Sequence record: NC_047806.1
Length of the DNA: 44,018 bases
DNA from: Escherichia phage vB_EcoP_B
Strand: one strand, 5' to 3'
Positions 6,940-26,711 of the stretch are shown here, piece by piece (the stretch's first letter is position 1; each line of letters begins with the position of its first letter). A program made the translations under genes and the position numbers. Under the pieces are notes generated by a model. That model had not been told where the DNA came from. It made no database searches and worked only from the letters and a program-made list of their open reading frames with translations.

Positions 6940-7311
6940 TCAAAACTCTTCCTCTTCGCTAACCGGAGCTTCCGGTGCAGACACTTCTACTGCCGGAGCT
7001 TCAGCTTCTTCAGCAGCTTTGACTTCTTTCACTGGTTTACCAGCAGCAATCCAATCCAGATATTCAGCTACGATGTTAGCCTTACCGATCTGGGCTTTGT
7101 CAGCCTGCTCAGGGAAGCAAGCACGAGCGAACTCCAGACCAGCAGCGAAGTTACCCATGCTGTCAATCTTAGCCTGAGCTTCTTCACGGGTATCGTAAGC
7201 CTTAGTACCAGCTACCAGTTGATCAGCTTCATCGACGATAATGAAAGACTCAACGGATACCAGAGCAGCACCTTTAACAACACGGTTTACGATAGTTTCA
7301 ATCTTGAACAT
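6940..7311 (-). CDS. hypothetical protein with acidic C-terminal tail ending in Phe (123 aa)
   Basis: ORF track; AAGGAG SD; C-terminus ...PEAPVSEEEEF; directly downstream of phage promoter at 7364-7384. Confidence 0.55.
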   Translation of the reverse strand: MFKIETIVNRVVKGAALVSVESFIIVDEADQLVAGTKAYDTREEAQAKIDSMGNFAAGLEFARACFPEQADKAQIGKANIVAEYLDWIAAGKPVKEVKAAEEAEAPAVEVSAPEAPVSEEEEF

Positions 7312-7644: not shown

Positions 7645-8451
7645 TTAATATTCCGCGTCCTCATCCATCTCCGGTGCAGGAGTATCTTCTGCTTCAGGTA
7701 CTTCCTGTGGAACAGACTCACCAGTATCCAGAGATTTACGATTAGCTGGGGTAGCATCTTCCTCGTCTTTCTTCTTAGCCTTCTTCCATTCAGGGTCTTC
7801 TTCACGAGCAGCTTTGATAATAGCTTCTACGTGAGAGCCAGCAACAGACAGGTTCTTACCACGAGGTGTCTCGTTCAGGAAGTATTGACGTACCAAGTTA
7901 GCTGGGATGTCATCAAGGATTTCTTTGGTCAGCTTGTCGAAGGTGATATGACCTGTCATAGACAGACCTTCCTCTTCTACCTGAGCCAGTACAAGCTTCT
8001 TCAACTTATCAGGCATACCGCCAAAGCCTTTCCAGTTAACATACTTGAAAGTACCATCATCATTCTTGTCGCCAGAGCCAACCATAGTTGCAGTCAGACA
8101 TTCACCGATAAAATCATCGAAGCCACCCAGCAACTCTTTAGGGTCAACTGCATTCAGGAACTTAGTCAGTGTTGCCTTATCACCAGACTTCAGAGGCACA
8201 GCCATCCATTGTTCCATGCGAGAATCATCTTCATTCTTATCGTCGTCACCCATCAGGATAATCTTAACAAGAACAAAGTTTGCTGGCTTCTTAACTTCAG
8301 TGGTATTACCTTTCTTAAAGATATCTTGGAAGGAACCAACATGAATGATGCCAGAGATTACTGCTTCATGATCACCAACTTCAGGGTTCTTAAATACTTT
8401 ACCTTCAGCTTTAGTAACCTGAGCACCAAAATCAAAATCACCACGTGCCAT
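7645..8451 (-). CDS. single-stranded DNA-binding protein (gp2.5-like), 268 aa
   Basis: ORF track; long acidic C-terminal tail ending ...EMDEDAEY (acidic tail with terminal aromatic, as in T7 gp2.5); promoter at 8510-8530 upstream. Confidence 0.65.
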   Translation of the reverse strand: MARGDFDFGAQVTKAEGKVFKNPEVGDHEAVISGIIHVGSFQDIFKKGNTTEVKKPANFVLVKIILMGDDDKNEDDSRMEQWMAVPLKSGDKATLTKFLNAVDPKELLGGFDDFIGECLTATMVGSGDKNDDGTFKYVNWKGFGGMPDKLKKLVLAQVEEEGLSMTGHITFDKLTKEILDDIPANLVRQYFLNETPRGKNLSVAGSHVEAIIKAAREEDPEWKKAKKKDEEDATPANRKSLDTGESVPQEVPEAEDTPAPEMDEDAEY

Positions 8452-8530: not shown

Positions 8531-8828
8531 ACTTATGAACTACCTTAATACGTGCAATAGTATCGAGAGGGTAGACATAACTAACACATTCACCATCTTC
8601 AACCTCTTGTACATTTACACTAGCCATAGTGTCACAAAGTGAAAGGCTCAATTGATGACAAGTTTCACCTTGAGTAAACTCTGGACCACGATAGGCATCT
8701 GCTTGTTCCACAGTAGTGATTGCTGTATCGTCTTCTTTAGCCAGACGAGTGTGACCTGCAACTTTACGCTGCTCTAGATCACGAAAGATGATACCTACAT
8801 GTTTAGCTTGAATCACTTCTTCCATCAT
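8529..8828 (-). CDS. hypothetical protein (99 aa)
   Basis: ORF track; AAGGAG SD. Confidence 0.45.
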   Translation of the reverse strand: MMEEVIQAKHVGIIFRDLEQRKVAGHTRLAKEDDTAITTVEQADAYRGPEFTQGETCHQLSLSLCDTMASVNVQEVEDGECVSYVYPLDTIARIKVVHK

Positions 8829-8834
8829 AACTCC

Positions 8835-9212
8835 TTATTTAGTCAAGTTGTCCAGTTCTATTTCCAGCATAACAATCTCTTTCTTCAGGCTGTCAGATGC
8901 AGCTTGATTTACAAGAGCAATTGATGCCTTGTTCTCTTCAAATTCAGCTTTCAGGCTGTCACGCTCTTGCTGGTGACGTGCCAGCATATCTTCTACCTCT
9001 TTGACTTGACGTGCATTTAGTTCATCACGAGATGCATAGTAGCGGTTATGACAGTCAATCATTTGAGAACTACGATGTTCTTCAACTTTAACTTGCTCTG
9101 CCTGTACTGCTTCGATGCGAGCCTCAATAGCTTTGATAGCCTTGGACTTGAACTTATTAGCAAGACCACGAAAGTATTGAGCCACGAATACCAGAGTAGT
9201 TACCATAGACAT
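8835..9212 (-). CDS. hypothetical protein with N-terminal hydrophobic segment and coiled-coil-like remainder (125 aa)
   Basis: ORF track; ATAGGAG SD; promoter at 9278-9299 upstream. Confidence 0.5.
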   Translation of the reverse strand: MSMVTTLVFVAQYFRGLANKFKSKAIKAIEARIEAVQAEQVKVEEHRSSQMIDCHNRYYASRDELNARQVKEVEDMLARHQQERDSLKAEFEENKASIALVNQAASDSLKKEIVMLEIELDNLTK

Positions 9213-9277
9213 ATTTATATCTCCTATATTTATTTAATTACCTATACTACCTTATAAACCTAGATTACCTAGGCTTT

Positions 9278-9299
9278 CCTTCTATAGTGTCCAGTAAAT
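9278..9299 (-). promoter_or_regulatory. phage RNAP promoter
   Basis: ATTTACTGGACACTATAGAAGG. Confidence 0.7.
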
Positions 9300-9581
9300 C
9301 ATGTTAGACTAAATAAGTAGGAATAAGTTATTCATAAAGGCCACTCGTAAGTGACCTTGAGTATAACTCAGTCGTAGTTACCATCACAATCTGGGTCAAT
9401 GCCAGAGAAAGCCCAGAATACTACCATAAATAATATGACTCCAAGAATAATAAAAGATGCCTGCATCAATCGTAACCCTCCTCTTCATCAGGTATATCTA
9501 ATCGCATACTTCCATAGCAAGCAAGCATAAGGAATATAAGAAAGAAGGTGGAGAATAGGCAAACAATATCAAACCTGTCCA

Positions 9582-12128
9582 TCAGTGTGTTTCCTTCCAA
9601 CTTGCACCAATCTTATACTCACCTGCCATCGGACAACGCATCTTCAGGTACTGACCTGCCCAAGTCATTGCATCGGCAATGATATGCCCTGCACGGTGAT
9701 AACGACGCTGGCAATGAAGTACACCAGCATCAGCATCAACACTAACGAGATTTGCAGCAGACCACATACGTCCTTCAGAATCCACATGAACACGTTTCTC
9801 CTCTGCATCGAACACTGCTTTCACAGCAGCCTTCTCTGTTTCGAACCCTTCTAAGGTGAAAGGCAAGTCGTAGTTGAGATACAAGACCTCATCTTCAGGG
9901 ACTTCCATCTGGATTTCATCGTGCACGTTAGCTATACCGCAAGGGTTTCCCATGCTATCTAAGGCCACACCTTCCTTGCGCATCACTGCAAACGCTCTGA
10001 CCAATGCGTATTTCATACACAGAGAACCAGTCATCTGGAGTAGTACGTTAAGCATAGTGTGCTCTTTAAGTTCACCACCAGACATACGGATGCGACCCCA
10101 ATGACCATCAGGTGCTTGTAGGTAGCCAAACTTGTTACCTTGTGCGATAACATTCTCACGAAGACGTGCAAGAGATGGTAGTTCAACCTCAAATCTTGCC
10201 ACAACTTCCTCCATTTCTTCCTCAGTAACACCACATACTGCTGCAAGGTTAGCTATACCAGACCCATATAGGAAGGCATATATAAATGTCTTCGCCATGT
10301 CACGCTTAGGAAGACCAGCCTTCATTTGATTATGGGTGTGAATGTCACCATGCAGTACAATATCTTGATATTCAGGGTCATTCATGAAGTGAGACAGTAC
10401 ACGTAGTTCAAGACCAGCACCATCACAACCAAGGATTAGCTTACCTTTACCGGCTATGAATAAATCACGTAAAGGATACAAACCACGGGCAGGAATATTA
10501 ACCACGTTACGATGACGCATACGGAACGTAGAAGTTCCAATACTAATAGCAATAGCTGGCACACGCCATTCTCCGTCATCCTTGTCTGACGTAGGCCAGC
10601 ATCCGTACCTTTCGTAGTATTGCTGCGCATTGATTCCTAACTCCTTGTTAAATGCTACAGGTACAAGGCCGCGACACTTTCGTATACCAGCTTGCGAAGG
10701 CCACACCCCCTTCTGGTCGAAGGCTTCAACGTCACCACGGTTGAGGATCTGACCACGACGGGATACGAGTATGTACCATGCAGCGATACCCAAGCACCAA
10801 TCAGGGACTGTTTTACCTTCACGTGCGGCTCTCTCTTGCCATAAAGTAAGGGACTTTTCATTTATCTTCCCACTCCAAGGCTTGGGTAATACGCCATGCT
10901 CATCGAGATGCGCTTGCTCGGTATCGTTAAATTCAACACCTTTCCATCCATAATCATAGAGCACTTGCTTAACTGTATCCCTGTTACCCAAGGGAATCTC
11001 TTCGAAAGTAACAGGCGAGTAAGCGCCAATCCACTTGATGCTTGGCGTGTCATTACGGTTTCCTCTAAGGTGAGGAAAGTCTTTCTTGACGCTAGCCGAC
11101 CAATCACCAGACTTAGTAGTGACACTCCATACTGTCTTGCGATCTCCTCGTCTCTCTGCGTGAAGAAAGTGAGAGGGGTCAAGGACAGTAGGTATATTGT
11201 TGCTAGCTCCATACTCATTTGCGCGTTGGCATACTTCATTCTTTTCTTCCGGTTTAAAAGGTTTAGACTTGATACGCATAGGCATGTGCGGACGGAACGC
11301 TGCGACTGTCTCATCAATCTTAGCGTCCAATTCCTCGCATCGTGCTAATGCTTTATCTATATCCAGACGGAATCCACGCTCGGCCTGACGGCTCATCTCC
11401 AGCGCCACAATGGACTCCATGTGGAAGGCTGTCTCAATACCTAGGCCAGTGCGTTTATTCACGCCACGGCGTTTGTGCTCCGTCCATTCTCCGTTAAATA
11501 GCCAGAGGAATAGGTCACGGCCTATCGCCACGTCCTCGCGTACACGATGTACCATGTGGTCAGTTAGTTTAGACCAATCCTCGTTCTCCGGCTTATAACG
11601 GCCTATACGAATGCCGTGCGCCTCAATTGAGTGAGGGGCTACGTTACCCATGCCTTTGGCGTATGCTTGCGGAGGGAGGCGTCTATCGGGGTTTAACAGG
11701 CGACTCATGACCAGCGTATCCATGACGCGTACCGGACACAGGTCAGCGCGGAGTCTGCCCTTGCCGCGTCTCTCGGTATAGTTAAAGCCTTTCCAGATAT
11801 CAGGGAATGCTTTCTCAAATAGAAGGCCGTCGTACCCTAGGAAGTTCTGTGAGACGATGGCTTCGCAGTGCTTAAGGAAGTTAACACCGTCAACCAATGT
11901 TCCATCTTGATGGCCTTCCCATTCTTTTAGGCGTTCTCTTGCTTCAGGGTCACGCATCTCGTATGGGTCAAAGAAGAGGAACTCCTCTGTAGTAAGCAAA
12001 TCCATGCAGCAAATGATGTGCACATCTTCGCGGTGGCCATATCGGATAGCATCCAGCAGGCCTTTAGCCTCAGAATCCATCACTAAGATGCGGCCTTCTG
12101 CTTCCTTCTTCCAATCAATTGATTTCAT
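9582..12128 (-). CDS. DNA polymerase (family A, T7 gp5-like), 848 aa
   Basis: ORF track 9582..12161 trimmed to ATG 12126-12128 with GGAG SD; motifs GCDGAGLELRVLSHF, KTFIYAFLYGSG, VHDEIQMEV match T7 DNA polymerase motifs A/B/C. Confidence 0.85.
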   Translation of the reverse strand: MKSIDWKKEAEGRILVMDSEAKGLLDAIRYGHREDVHIICCMDLLTTEEFLFFDPYEMRDPEARERLKEWEGHQDGTLVDGVNFLKHCEAIVSQNFLGYDGLLFEKAFPDIWKGFNYTERRGKGRLRADLCPVRVMDTLVMSRLLNPDRRLPPQAYAKGMGNVAPHSIEAHGIRIGRYKPENEDWSKLTDHMVHRVREDVAIGRDLFLWLFNGEWTEHKRRGVNKRTGLGIETAFHMESIVALEMSRQAERGFRLDIDKALARCEELDAKIDETVAAFRPHMPMRIKSKPFKPEEKNEVCQRANEYGASNNIPTVLDPSHFLHAERRGDRKTVWSVTTKSGDWSASVKKDFPHLRGNRNDTPSIKWIGAYSPVTFEEIPLGNRDTVKQVLYDYGWKGVEFNDTEQAHLDEHGVLPKPWSGKINEKSLTLWQERAAREGKTVPDWCLGIAAWYILVSRRGQILNRGDVEAFDQKGVWPSQAGIRKCRGLVPVAFNKELGINAQQYYERYGCWPTSDKDDGEWRVPAIAISIGTSTFRMRHRNVVNIPARGLYPLRDLFIAGKGKLILGCDGAGLELRVLSHFMNDPEYQDIVLHGDIHTHNQMKAGLPKRDMAKTFIYAFLYGSGIANLAAVCGVTEEEMEEVVARFEVELPSLARLRENVIAQGNKFGYLQAPDGHWGRIRMSGGELKEHTMLNVLLQMTGSLCMKYALVRAFAVMRKEGVALDSMGNPCGIANVHDEIQMEVPEDEVLYLNYDLPFTLEGFETEKAAVKAVFDAEEKRVHVDSEGRMWSAANLVSVDADAGVLHCQRRYHRAGHIIADAMTWAGQYLKMRCPMAGEYKIGASWKETH

Positions 12129-12334: not shown

Positions 12335-12456
12335 CATTGCCTCTGTTTCGTAGTAGTCATCTGAACGTTCAGGTTTTGAGTTCATTGAATCTTGGAAATC
12401 CCAATCAGAATCATAATCACGTGGCATAATGCACCTCCAATCAATATGATGAAAGG

Positions 12457-12474
12457 CTGTCTCACGTGTGAGAC
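12457..12474 (-). other. GTCTCAC..GTGAGAC palindromic hairpin element
   Basis: tgtctcacgtgtgagaca; intergenic. Confidence 0.5.
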
Positions 12475-13673: not shown

Positions 13674-15662
13674 TCAGAACTCACTTTCTTCATCGAAGTT
13701 AGTCTCTTCTATAGTGTCTGGTAAATCAGGTACTTCTTGTTGCCTTGCTTCACCTGTATCAAATGACTTAGTACGAGCTTGTGGTTCCATTAAACGTCCG
13801 GTTTGAATGTCACCCTTGAGCATGACCTTGGTTCCAGTGTAGATACCTTGGTCGCGGTCTTTGACACATGAGATGTACGTGGTAGTCCTTTCATCAAGCG
13901 TTTCAGCTCTTGTATTACGCTCAATCCCCAAGGCGTAAGATGCCCAGAATCCGATAGCGCCTGAGCCTCGGAAGTCAGAAAGGATAACTTCGCCACCTTC
14001 TTCGTGTTGGGTACGGTTTGCCGGAGGACGTGTAAGGTGAGAGACAAGGAAAATCGTAACCGCATGTCGATCTTTGATAGTACCAATTCGTTTGACGCAT
14101 TCATCAAGTGCACCAACCTTCCCACCAAAAGCACGCTCATCTAATTTAATCCCCGTTAAGTTATCAATGATGATATTAGAAATGCCCATAGCCTCAAACT
14201 CTAGGCAAGTTTGCTCTACCTTCTCCATAGAATAGTCACCCTCTAGGTCAGCTACAAACAGCTTCCCTGTATCAGCTACATAATCAATGGCGGCATTAGC
14301 CTCTTCCTCAGTATAGTCGAACACCTCACGGTATCCGTCTTCTTTCGGGTCATTGGTTGGCGGTAACTCAATGCGCTTATCAATCCACTTACCGATAAAA
14401 GCACGGGACACCTTGACCATCGGGTCTTCTGTAGAAATGATGCCTACAGATTCACCATGTTCTTCAATAAGATGTTTAACCACTTCGCGGAGGAACTCAG
14501 TCTTACCTACACCAGAGCCTGCACCTACAATGATAAGCTGGTTCTTACGAATACCTAGCGTTACCTTGTTCAGCTTAGGCCAAGGCCATGATAGCCCTTG
14601 CTCTGGACGTGCAGCCTTGAGCTTATCCCTTTGAGATGCGATAGATTTAATATGGCTACCAAAGACTTCATCAGATGACTTGGCATTAAACCAAGCATCA
14701 ACAAACTCTTTAGCCTTGCCAGCCATCAATGCCTTGTTAGCATCTTTGCAACCAGAAGGGTATTCAAGGATATAGGATTTGCCAGGAAACAGGCGAGCCG
14801 CTTGCTGATTCTGCTTCTGCCCTACCTCATCTCCATCAAAACCCCATATAATCTTCTTAAATTGGGCGATGTGTTCACGGTTCTGTACTATCTCTTCAAG
14901 GCAAGACTCACCTTTATTGACAGACCATACATGGTAAGGCTGGCCTTCCCACTTAGTACCCTTGGCAGAATCAAGGAGCATTTGCTGTGCTGCTAGTGCA
15001 TCCAGTTCGCCGCCGACAATGAGCAAGTGATCCTTTCGTCTTCCCTTGTCTAACACGTGAGACAAAGTATTCATCCCGAAAAGATCTTGCATACCAAAGA
15101 GTTTACCTAAATGACCAAACTTAAAGTCTTTAGGTAATGTGCGACACTTAGCGCCTACTAGTTCACCTTTCTCGAAGCGTGGATAGTAATGCCGTGAGAC
15201 TCTACCCTCTTCATCGTGTCCGACACGTACATCATACAATGCGCAAATGTCGCCGCGAATGTGTCGGGAAACAAGATTCTTACGCTTAAGCGTGAGGAAC
15301 CATTCAACATCAAGTTTCCACTCTGCTTCTTGGTCTGCCCTTTCTTGCTCATTCATGACCTCCCATCGGTCTTTCATACGCATGCCACCAAGTGCGATGG
15401 CGCGTAACTTAGGGTCGCTTATCTTCCCTTCCTTCTCCATCTCTTTGAATTGAGAAGGTGTATATTTGATATTGCCAGTAATAGGCAACTCGGTGATCTC
15501 GATGCCACCATCTGGCTTATGATAGTAAGGCTTGCCGTTATCGTGGAAATGACCACGGTTACAATAGCCAGCACCATCATCAAATATCATGAGATGATTG
15601 CCGGATTTATCGTGTCCATTCTTCTGGCAGGCAGGGCACGGGATGTTATTAATAATAGCCAT
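13674..15662 (-). CDS. bifunctional DNA primase/helicase (gp4-like), 662 aa
   Basis: ORF track; N-terminal zinc ribbon CPACQ...CNRGH, Walker A GAGSGVGKT, acidic C-terminus ending ...FDEESEF; AAGGTG SD. Confidence 0.85.
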   Translation of the reverse strand: MAIINNIPCPACQKNGHDKSGNHLMIFDDGAGYCNRGHFHDNGKPYYHKPDGGIEITELPITGNIKYTPSQFKEMEKEGKISDPKLRAIALGGMRMKDRWEVMNEQERADQEAEWKLDVEWFLTLKRKNLVSRHIRGDICALYDVRVGHDEEGRVSRHYYPRFEKGELVGAKCRTLPKDFKFGHLGKLFGMQDLFGMNTLSHVLDKGRRKDHLLIVGGELDALAAQQMLLDSAKGTKWEGQPYHVWSVNKGESCLEEIVQNREHIAQFKKIIWGFDGDEVGQKQNQQAARLFPGKSYILEYPSGCKDANKALMAGKAKEFVDAWFNAKSSDEVFGSHIKSIASQRDKLKAARPEQGLSWPWPKLNKVTLGIRKNQLIIVGAGSGVGKTEFLREVVKHLIEEHGESVGIISTEDPMVKVSRAFIGKWIDKRIELPPTNDPKEDGYREVFDYTEEEANAAIDYVADTGKLFVADLEGDYSMEKVEQTCLEFEAMGISNIIIDNLTGIKLDERAFGGKVGALDECVKRIGTIKDRHAVTIFLVSHLTRPPANRTQHEEGGEVILSDFRGSGAIGFWASYALGIERNTRAETLDERTTTYISCVKDRDQGIYTGTKVMLKGDIQTGRLMEPQARTKSFDTGEARQQEVPDLPDTIEETNFDEESEF
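13706..13726 (-). promoter_or_regulatory. phage RNAP promoter inside 3' end of helicase gene
   Basis: ATTTACCAGACACTATAGAAG. Confidence 0.6.
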
Positions 15663-22320: not shown

Positions 22321-22847
22321 GAGTGAACGGAGCGCAAGCGGAGTGAGGAGCAGTGAGTGAAGCGTAGCGAAACGAACAGATAGCCCACACCCTCATGCCC
22401 TGTCAAACGCTCAGGAATGGCCCTAAAACGGCCTGTGTAAGCCCTAAGCGGTTGCACTAAGGCAATCACCTTGTCCAATACTAAGGCGCGCCCTAGCGCT
22501 TCCTAGGTGTTCTCCTTGTGCAGCCACTAAGAGCAGACCTCGGCAAGCTCTAGGCCACCCGTCGAGCTTCCTGCGGCAGCAGGTTGAAGACGGACCAGCC
22601 CAGCCCAATTCCCAAGCCAACCGCAGCGCGGCCCCATATGGGGGAAATCCGGCGAGGGCGAGGGCGAGAGAGCTGACACACGCCTATATCAAAATTTTGA
22701 CTTTGGTTACTTTGTGACCACCTTTGGTCTGCCCTTTTGGTTACACTAAGATTATTCCTGCTAAGTACAGGTACACCAGCAGTGGGCCATAGATACATGC
22801 TGTGCATAAGAGGGCTAACAGTAGGTCTTTCATGTTACCTCATTTGA

Positions 22848-26364: not shown

Positions 26365-26711
26365 GATTCGCCTCACTTTGTGCCTCCTTCTCTTCCTTCT
26401 TCTTCTTAGCGGCAAGCAGCAGGCCAATAAGACCTGCTACCACCTCTAGCACCTTATTCACAGGTGATTACTTGGCATACCACGTCAGTGACGGAACCTT
26501 CAGTACCTTCACCTAGGTCTACGCCAAGACCTACAGAAACAAGAGCAATCACCAGTGCAACCAGTGCACCTACCACTTTCTTAGACTTAAACAGCTTTTT
26601 CATTACATCTCCCTTTCCATTGAGCTAATAAGTCCGAGTAGTTCTTCCAGTCATCATAGTTGCCACCCTCGGCAGCTTGAGCAACCATGCGCTCGCACCA
26701 TTCAATACATC

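Follow-up and report, generated by a model that had tools for sequence, protein, structure and literature searches.

The window—the whole 44,018-nucleotide stretch of Escherichia phage vB_EcoP_B (NC_047806.1) that was analyzed here—derives from a Vectrevirus of the K1E/K1-5 type and carries, directly behind its DNA polymerase gene, two tiny overlapping open reading frames (ORFs), genes 13.5 and 14. The existence of these genes, the selection on their coding frames, the architecture of their products, their modular gain and loss, and their expression signals are established in the following, and both genes are with high confidence protein-coding. As for function, we find it fairly probable that the two real, if tiny, genes encode translationally coupled single-pass peptides of the inner membrane, which the phage can dispense with and which would display an acidic motif to a partner or a cation.

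Both genes are already known as annotated hypothetical proteins of the K1E, K1-5, and SP6 records (gp13.5, gp14/gp15). The present analysis confirms that these annotations describe real genes, and its significance is otherwise small. It quantifies the purifying selection acting on the two peptides, which several annotation pipelines still leave out, shows that this selection targets the helix end and the acidic tail and not the helix, and defines the precise limits of the cassettes, from the polymerase stop codon to a putative RNase III site of the R1.1 type.

Junctions and expression signals

In this part of the window, every gene lies on the minus strand. Gene 13 (9582..12128), an 848-residue DNA polymerase gene according to the ORF list and the K1E gene 13 annotation (2547 nt), has a homolog at locus L139 on which PF00476 (DNA_pol_A) is recorded. 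Its TGA stop codon (9584..9582) runs into the ATG of gene 13.5 (9582..9580) in the context ...CAC TGATGG.... Gene 13.5 (9466..9582, minus strand) encodes the 38-residue peptide MDRFDIVCLFSTFFLIFLMLACYGSMRLDIPDEEEGYD, which consists of one hydrophobic helix and an acidic tail ending in ...IPDEEEGYD. Gene 14 (9368..9466, minus strand) encodes the 32-residue peptide MQASFIILGVILFMVVFWAFSGIDPDCDGNYD, again one hydrophobic helix, which lacks any basic residue and ends in the tail DPDCDGNYD. At the second junction, the stop codon of gene 13.5 (9468..9466) and the ATG of gene 14 (9466..9464) form TGATG again, with one nucleotide in common. The first-pass annotation had described ORFs of these lengths behind the polymerase gene, and the translations of 9466-9582 and 9368-9466 on the minus strand match its peptides exactly; its start–stop overlap likewise stands at both junctions, although the motif is TGATG with a single common nucleotide and not ATGA.

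Each start codon is preceded by a Shine–Dalgarno (SD) sequence inside the upstream gene. For gene 13.5, this is an SD-like AAGGA at 9592..9596 (minus strand), placed within the final polymerase codons W-K-E-T-H, with an anti-SD duplex energy of -5.7 kcal/mol compared with a mean of -2.5 at random positions. For gene 14, it is a strong GAGGAGG at 9477..9483 (minus strand) inside the E-E-G codons of gene 13.5, with a duplex energy of -12.5 kcal/mol. Both energies fall within the range of the large genes of this phage. An architecture of translational coupling—TGATG overlap plus SD inside the upstream gene—is hence present at both junctions and supports in silico the coupling that had been proposed. 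Ribosomes would end at the polymerase UGA, reinitiate at the overlapping AUG (UGAUG) of gene 13.5 and then at that of gene 14, and the SD just upstream of each UGAUG would assist the restart. Because reinitiation would take place at overlapping start codons, the peptides would be produced alongside the polymerase in the middle phase of infection, that of DNA metabolism.

A programmed -1 frameshift yielding a polymerase–gp13.5 fusion was considered as well and is unlikely: the frame of gene 13.5 is open for only 6 codons upstream of its ATG (ORF 9466..9600), and no X-XXY-YYZ slippery heptamer occurs among the last polymerase codons.

Coding evidence and selection

Among 100 gene-strand ORFs of 25–45 residues in the window, only three reach a value of at least 2.7 in a 17-residue Kyte–Doolittle window, and two of these three are the neighbors gene 13.5 and gene 14; hence, the pair is unlikely to have arisen by chance. 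Homologs were searched for with degenerate DNA patterns and with a concatenated 70-residue query of both peptides. Translated searches recovered full-length gp13.5 from 66 and full-length gp14 from 67 GenBank phage records with intact frames and identities down to ~74%, while a related polymerase C terminus is encoded in 213 records. Conservation in related phages, on which the first-pass annotation had let its claim depend, is thus found for both frames.

Distinct DNA versions were collected for both genes (21 for gene 13.5, 14 for gene 14), each set of equal length, with an intact frame in 19/21 and 13/14; indels are absent from 33 of the 35 distinct copies. When read in the annotated frame, gene 13.5 has a pooled Nei–Gojobori ratio of nonsynonymous to synonymous differences per site (pN/pS) of 0.22 and gene 14 one of 0.23, to be compared with 0.17 for the final 190 polymerase codons of the same genomes. 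In the shifted frames, the ratio lies at 0.82–1.20 and stop codons are present. A site-based count gives the same picture, with 23/50 synonymous alleles for gene 13.5 (23% expected, P=3.3e-4) and 19/39 for gene 14 (23% expected, P=4.2e-4). This excess is seen in the annotated frames only.

An exhaustive profile search of 1.84 billion representative proteins returned two divergent relatives of gp13.5, both with 20/38 identical residues, both exactly 38 residues long, and both with a start that overlaps the stop of an SP6-type polymerase gene (L139 and L140). Hydrophobicity, the length of 38 codons, and the tail motif of gene 13.5 are kept at nucleotide identities of 58–72%.

Known relatives and their annotation

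The 801 bp from 9100 to 9900 are 100% identical to the phage vB_EcoP_K and 98–99% identical to K1E and K1-5. The gp13.5 of the window does not differ from K1E gp13.5 (YP_424989) and K1-5 gp13.5 (AAR90054)—100% identity, same position, start on the polymerase stop—and is the same gene, which those records call a hypothetical protein. It matches PHROG 15860 (phrog_15860) over residues 1–38 of 38 with E=2.8e-30. Likewise, gp14 is 100% identical to K1E gp14 (YP_424990) and K1-5 gp14 (AAR90055), 87.5% identical to the SP6 protein, and 75% identical to orf21 of UAB_Phi78, and it matches PHROG 4539 (phrog_4539) with E=3.7e-17. Both PHROG families bear the function label unknown. SP6-type phages of Salmonella lack gene 13.5, so that their gene 14 starts right at the polymerase stop. 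The labels of this gene vary: for SP6, it is "15" or gp15 in AY288927 and NC_004831 and "14" in AY370673, and the genome paper PMC4837284 equates SP6 gp15 with AAP48754 and lists UAB_Phi78 orf21, the gene 14 equivalent, as "Unknown". The vB_EcoP_K record annotates gene 14 and not gene 13.5, and one or both ORFs are skipped by several annotation pipelines.

No match to either peptide was obtained in Pfam, NCBIfam, and PADLOC, nor one to gp13.5 in the Protein Data Bank (PDB), and complete Escherichia coli genomes and plasmids hold no match to gp13.5 or gp14. Pattern scans with FWAFSG.DP over metagenomes and bacterial genomes gave chance matches mostly; the true homologs were L105, L107, and L113 only, and none of the bacterial genomes scanned contributed a true gene 14 homolog. 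Scans of IMG/VR with each tail motif alone revealed no further carriers.

Architecture of the peptides

AlphaFold2 predicts one helix per peptide, spanning residues 3–29 of gp13.5 and residues 3–22 of gp14, with low confidence for the tails. Together with Kyte–Doolittle maxima of 2.8–3.0, this bears out the description of both as single-helix hydrophobic peptides and suggests membrane insertion. The acidic character of the tails is evident as well: the last 12 residues carry a net charge of -5 in gp13.5 and -4 in gp14, and the tails are invariant in relatives.

Conservation is distributed unevenly along both chains. Within Vectrevirus, L18, M19, A21–S25, and D32–D38 of gp13.5 are invariant, as are W18, F20–G22, and D24–D32 of gp14 except for position 27. 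In deep comparisons including the window, the ratio of nonsynonymous to synonymous substitution rates (dN/dS) of gp13.5 is 0.07–0.19 for C22–D38 and 0.35–0.64 for the N terminus and helix; the helix keeps its mean hydrophobicity and the tail its acidity. In the distant relatives, conservation is reduced to C8, to ...C-[YC]-G... where the helix ends, and to EEG[YF]D at the C terminus. In three phages without gene 14, the EEEG codons have shifted synonymously away from their SD form with the peptide unchanged; hence, this tail is constrained as a protein and not just as a ribosome-binding site. As judged from these sequence comparisons, the architecture is that of a variable hydrophobic anchor followed by a conserved juxtamembrane and acidic C-terminal motif, and the conserved, putatively functional part reads ...AC[YC]G...EEG[YF]D-COOH in gp13.5 and ...WAFSG.DPDxDGNYD-COOH in gp14.

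The tail of gp14 resembles EF-hand (DxDxDG) loops. Its residues D24-P-D26-C-D28-G29-N-Y-D32 follow D-x-[DN]-x-[DN]-G at loop positions 1–6 and place a ligand at position 9, and the sole variable residue of D24–D32, C/Y27, corresponds to the nonligand position 4 of the loop. The best match is lanmodulin (PDB 6mi5), with all four loops of which the tail AFSGIDPDCDGNYD aligns (e.g., with AFDKLDPDKDGTLD) over loop positions 1–9, including Pro at 2 and Gly at 6, at E values of 0.77–1 that are not significant. Unlike a complete EF-hand, gp14 ends at loop position 9 and has neither the bidentate Glu at position 12 nor an exiting helix. The tail might be a truncated EF-hand-like loop that could bind a divalent cation at the membrane surface; the gp13.5 tail does not fit the EF-hand motif.

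A common origin of the two genes by tandem duplication was tried and rejected: hhalign assigns a probability of 1.4% and aligns only the 8-residue tail PD...YD, and the global alignment score is reached in 689/5000 architecture-preserving shuffles and in 164/5000 tail shuffles.

Cassette behavior of the locus

Between the polymerase stop and a downstream hairpin, relatives carry both genes, either gene, or neither; all four configurations occur, and with exact boundaries. Where both are missing, the polymerase stop is followed by the hairpin at once (...CAC TGA, then GTTATACTCAAGG...). Gene 14 alone is found in SP6, UAB_Phi78, and Kenya-K30 and gene 13.5 alone in CrRp3, R4596, KMB14, and LF31P3, and every cassette terminates in TACGAYTGA. 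The start of gene 13.5 on the polymerase stop, which is also seen in the divergent L139 and L140, has an exception in NTNC80A, as an HNH homing endonuclease gene lies between its polymerase gene and gene 13.5. Other relatives bear inserts after the hairpin, either an 86-residue or a ~194-residue gene.

Disrupted copies, whether natural or of laboratory origin, occur, too. In gene 13.5, codon 35 has changed from GAG to TAG in Mt1B1_P10 (L133), a TTCTTTCTT run is expanded by 4 nt in ULINTec6 (L127), and a frameshift in the variant P0006 leads to a 61-residue read-through product; in gene 14, several single-base deletions are present in the metagenomic locus L005. Disrupted copies are found in isolates that were propagated as viable phages, although sequencing errors remain possible. 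On account of the exact gain and loss, the other inserts at the locus, and the disrupted copies in viable phages, genes 13.5 and 14 can be regarded as independent accessory cassettes within a hotspot, which the phages—judging from these natural losses—appear able to dispense with.

More generally, the 3′ end of the polymerase gene is an accessory hotspot, which also hosts the 86-residue gene (MIKYTAYQLTKD...), a ~177–197-residue gene with a FPVGGAVRDALYG motif that resembles a nucleotidyltransferase, and the HNH homing endonuclease. Such inserts were seen at L006, L125, L122, L013, and L009 (after the hairpin), at L010-L012, L017, L018, and L032, and at L124. The metagenomic contig L140 (1721-1989) combines a polymerase tail 97.5% identical to that of the window with a gene 13.5 of 72% nucleotide identity and 20/38 identical residues. 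Its gene 14 slot holds a 22-residue, nonhydrophobic, Cys-rich ORF (MQDTSCPFYPYLEPDCNNCSLR), which keeps the ATGCAGG start and CCAGATTGT (PDC). Such a combination suggests that the polymerase stop codon forms a sharp mosaic boundary or that the short ORF derives from gene 14 by deletion of the helix.

In distant SP6-like lineages, whose polymerase tail is 55–64% identical, unrelated small hydrophobic ORFs stand directly behind the polymerase gene: two of 28–32 residues in L034-L036 (+12..+206), whose copies differ little from one another, one of 28 residues in L037 (-11..+75), and one of 84 residues with two hydrophobic stretches in L025 (+51..+305). None of these ORFs has an acidic tail.

Hairpin, promoter, and the probable end of the message

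The cassettes are bounded downstream by a bipartite 18-bp hairpin (9324..9370, minus strand) with two stems and an internal loop, whose minimum free energy is -18.6 kcal/mol (z=-3.3); the UGA stop of gene 14 opens its lower stem. Across all gene configurations, the hairpin is nearly invariant, with two compensatory base-pair changes, and its conservation far exceeds that of synonymous sites in the genes on either side.

A related element occurs in T7, where the core CTCAAGGTCA...GAGTGGCCTTTATGA is found just after gene 1 between the promoters phi1.1A and phi1.1B (L141 107-145). The window (ACTCAAGGTCACTTACGAGTGGCCTTTATGAATAAC) and T7 (ACTCAAGGTCATTCGCAAGAGTGGCCTTTATGATTGAC) have the core sequence and the bipartite stem in common, and in both a phage promoter is nearby. 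The window hairpin, however, follows the polymerase module and incorporates the stop codon of the preceding gene in its lower stem, unlike the T7 element, which follows the RNA polymerase gene. We take the T7 element to be the R1.1 RNase III site, cleaved near nucleotide 5887, which is unannotated in the RefSeq record. Vibrio phage N4 has the same core as well (L138 405-455), in the intergenic space of two genes for internal virion proteins and just upstream of a T7-type promoter sequence. By this resemblance, the window hairpin would be an RNase III processing site of the T7 R1.1 type, at which the message might be cleaved. As the core is common to T7 and N4 and its conservation exceeds that of the flanking synonymous sites, the data suggest a mobile or strongly selected unit of processing site plus promoter across Autographiviridae.

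No intrinsic terminator was detected behind gene 14 in a simple scan, the hairpin being devoid of a U-tract, and Rfam returned nothing significant over 8700-10000, with insignificant matches to miRNA models only. Next to the hairpin lies the phage RNA polymerase promoter TTTACTGGACACTATAGAAG (9279..9298, minus strand), which starts the next transcription unit and drives gene 15 and the downstream genes. The window contains 10 copies of this promoter against an expectation of 0.02, and the minus strand carries every one of them. Since hairpin and promoter follow in this order, genes 13.5 and 14 would be the last cistrons of the polymerase message, and the hairpin is likely the 3′ end of the pol-13.5-14 mRNA. 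The message would thus terminate in an RNase III-type hairpin that includes its last stop codon, with a new phage promoter coming next.

Possible functions of gp13.5 and gp14

For the membrane peptides proposed above, the single helix would insert into the inner membrane and serve mainly as an anchor that is free to vary, while the acidic motif at the membrane surface would bind a specific partner—a host protein, a phage protein, or a divalent cation. Because the distribution of the genes is sporadic, the peptides would be expected to tune infection on particular hosts and not to serve an essential step. MgrB, AcrZ, MgtS, and KdpF are single-pass small membrane proteins of bacteria that regulate larger membrane proteins. 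Proteins of this type resemble gp13.5 and gp14 in their 30–50 residues, one transmembrane helix, and short soluble end, and they act via partner binding and not via catalysis, which by analogy might serve as a working model for the phage peptides. The latter differ by their unusually acidic tails, by the lack of a basic flank that would fix the topology, by being phage-encoded and apparently cotranslated with a polymerase, and by the absence of similarity in Pfam and NCBIfam.

Several points weigh against this picture. Literature searches found no functional study of gp13.5 or gp14, and a partner-binding role of the tails is suggested by the conservation pattern only. The selection statistics are drawn from phylogenetically related sequences and short genes, and one deep pair, L139 versus L140, shows a dN/dS of ~0.8. 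The topology is ambiguous, too. Behind its helix, gp13.5 has one basic residue (R27 or K29), which weakly favors a cytoplasmic tail but is Q in several variants, and gp14 has no basic residue, so the sequence does not fix the membrane side of the tails. Finally, part of the common ...YD-stop ending could reflect an RNA or DNA constraint at the hairpin junction, which is countered by L139, where the G-F-D ending is kept despite a different downstream sequence.

Membrane-active effectors in the manner of type I toxins or (pin)holins are one alternative, though an unlikely one. Such peptides would oligomerize and depolarize or permeabilize the inner membrane for the purpose of host shutdown, superinfection exclusion, or lysis timing, and with 32–38 residues and a single, very hydrophobic helix, gp13.5 and gp14 match small holins and type I toxins in general shape; motifs of small residues (A-x-x-G) close to where the helix ends could aid its packing. 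Conservation, however, resides in the acidic tail and the helix end and not on a helix face, and the basic C-terminal region typical of holins is missing. The genes are also located in the replication module between polymerase and gene 15, on the polymerase mRNA and outside the late and lysis region, and with coexpression of the polymerase an early depolarization would harm the phage. Matches to toxins, holins, or defense systems were absent from Pfam, NCBIfam, PADLOC, and the PHROG functional categories.

The tails might instead mimic the acidic C termini of replisome proteins. In T7, the acidic C-terminal tails of the gp4 helicase–primase and the gp2.5 single-stranded DNA-binding protein (SSB) dock on basic patches of the DNA polymerase. 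The helicase–primase of the present phage, and probably its SSB, would dock in the same manner. Cytoplasmic tails of gp13.5 and gp14 could thereby recruit the polymerase to the inner membrane or sequester it there, tether a different replication protein that binds such tails, or act as a competing decoy, and translational coupling would supply them alongside the polymerase. If true, this would constitute a minimal, optional replisome-to-membrane tether in a phage of the T7 supergroup. The physical and translational coupling to the polymerase gene speaks for this idea, as do the position of EEG[YF]D, the most conserved gp13.5 element, at the extreme C terminus, the weak preference of R27/K29 for a cytoplasmic tail, and the recurrence of acidic-aromatic C termini in the replication module. 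We rate it as improbable nevertheless. The aromatic residue of the peptides is penultimate (Y-D-COOH) and not last as in the helicase, gp16, and T7 gp2.5 and gp4, so that an acidic run with an aromatic last residue is seen in the primase–helicase and gp16 of the window but not in gp13.5 and gp14. The genes also appear dispensable and are lost independently in close relatives with nearly identical polymerases, which is unexpected for a replisome component, and a homing endonuclease gene intervenes between polymerase and gene 13.5 in NTNC80A.

The acidic-aromatic termini in the window themselves belong to three proteins, all encoded on the minus strand and all with tails resembling those of T7 gp4 and gp2.5: the primase–helicase (13674-15662; identified by DnaB_C/Toprim and phrog_239), which ends in ...NFDEESEF; gp16 (7645-8451; phrog_862), which ends in ...EMDEDAEY and may be the phage SSB; and a 123-residue middle-gene product (6940-7311; phrog_4429), which ends in ...VSEEEEF. 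The entries for gp16 and the 123-residue protein carry no function.

A third alternative, in which gp13.5 would be a lipoprotein precursor and gp14 signal-peptide-like, is very improbable. Cleavage between A and C in ...FLMLA-C or between S and G in A-F-S-G would leave an acidic periplasmic peptide of 10–17 residues, released or lipid-anchored. By the common definitions of lipobox and -3/-1 pattern, F-L-M-L-A-C22 of the window gp13.5 fits a permissive PROSITE-type lipobox with R3 within the first seven residues, M19, A21, C22, Y23, G24, and S25 are invariant within Vectrevirus, and A19-F-S21 of gp14 fits the -3/-1 rule. M-L-A-C is a permissive match only, however, and gp13.5 does not conform to a strict lipobox (a conserved basic n-region plus [LVI][ASTVI][GAS]C). 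Its N terminus is net acidic (MDRFD, with D5 invariant), the divergent versions P0009 and P0010 start without a basic residue (MATVD... and MAGFA...), and I-F-C-C in P0010 breaks the lipobox; gp14 has no basic residue whatsoever, and the hydrophobic stretches of 19 residues are of transmembrane length and not of that of typical signal-peptide h-regions.

That the ORFs are untranslated and merely mark a conserved RNA or DNA element—such as an untranslated 3′ stabilizer of the polymerase mRNA or a portion of the site at which it is processed—is hardly credible: the strongly conserved hairpin overlaps the last stop codon, and several pipelines pass over the ORFs, but the frame-specific substitutions, the near absence of indels, the persistence of hydrophobicity, length, and tail motif in diverged copies, the SDs of both ORFs, the blank Rfam result, and the loss of cassettes as exact whole-gene units all stand against it.

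For the coupled membrane peptides that we favor, a practical side may be noted. K1E, K1-5, and SP6-type phages serve in therapy and biocontrol, where it would matter if optional accessory genes with activity at the membrane changed their host range or their fitness on certain strains. Genes 13.5 and 14 are, furthermore, small and easily deleted or synthesized.

Neighboring features

The gene driven by the promoter behind the hairpin, gene 15 (8835-9212, minus strand; 125 residues), is named "polysaccharide chain length determinant protein" in RefSeq and PHROG 7450. Since nothing in Pfam scores above threshold (best E=0.004), this name is probably a propagated annotation without support; by appearance, the protein has a hydrophobic N terminus followed by a coiled coil.

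Further small ORFs of hydrophobic character are present outside larger ORFs on the minus strand, the gene strand of the window. At 12382-12465, upstream of the polymerase gene, a 27-residue hydrophobic ORF (MRQPFIILIGGALCHVIMILIGISKIQ) overlaps a 35-residue acidic one; at 22741-22833, there is a 30-residue hydrophobic ORF; and at 26454-26603, a 49-residue ORF combines a basic N terminus, one helix, and an acidic C terminus (MKKLFKSKKVVGALV...). The K1E RefSeq record, moreover, lists the candidate genes 13.1 (125 residues) and 13.2 (68 residues) inside the polymerase gene in another frame (L001 162-746), and these ORFs are also open in the window, at 10655-10861 and 10862-11317 on the minus strand.

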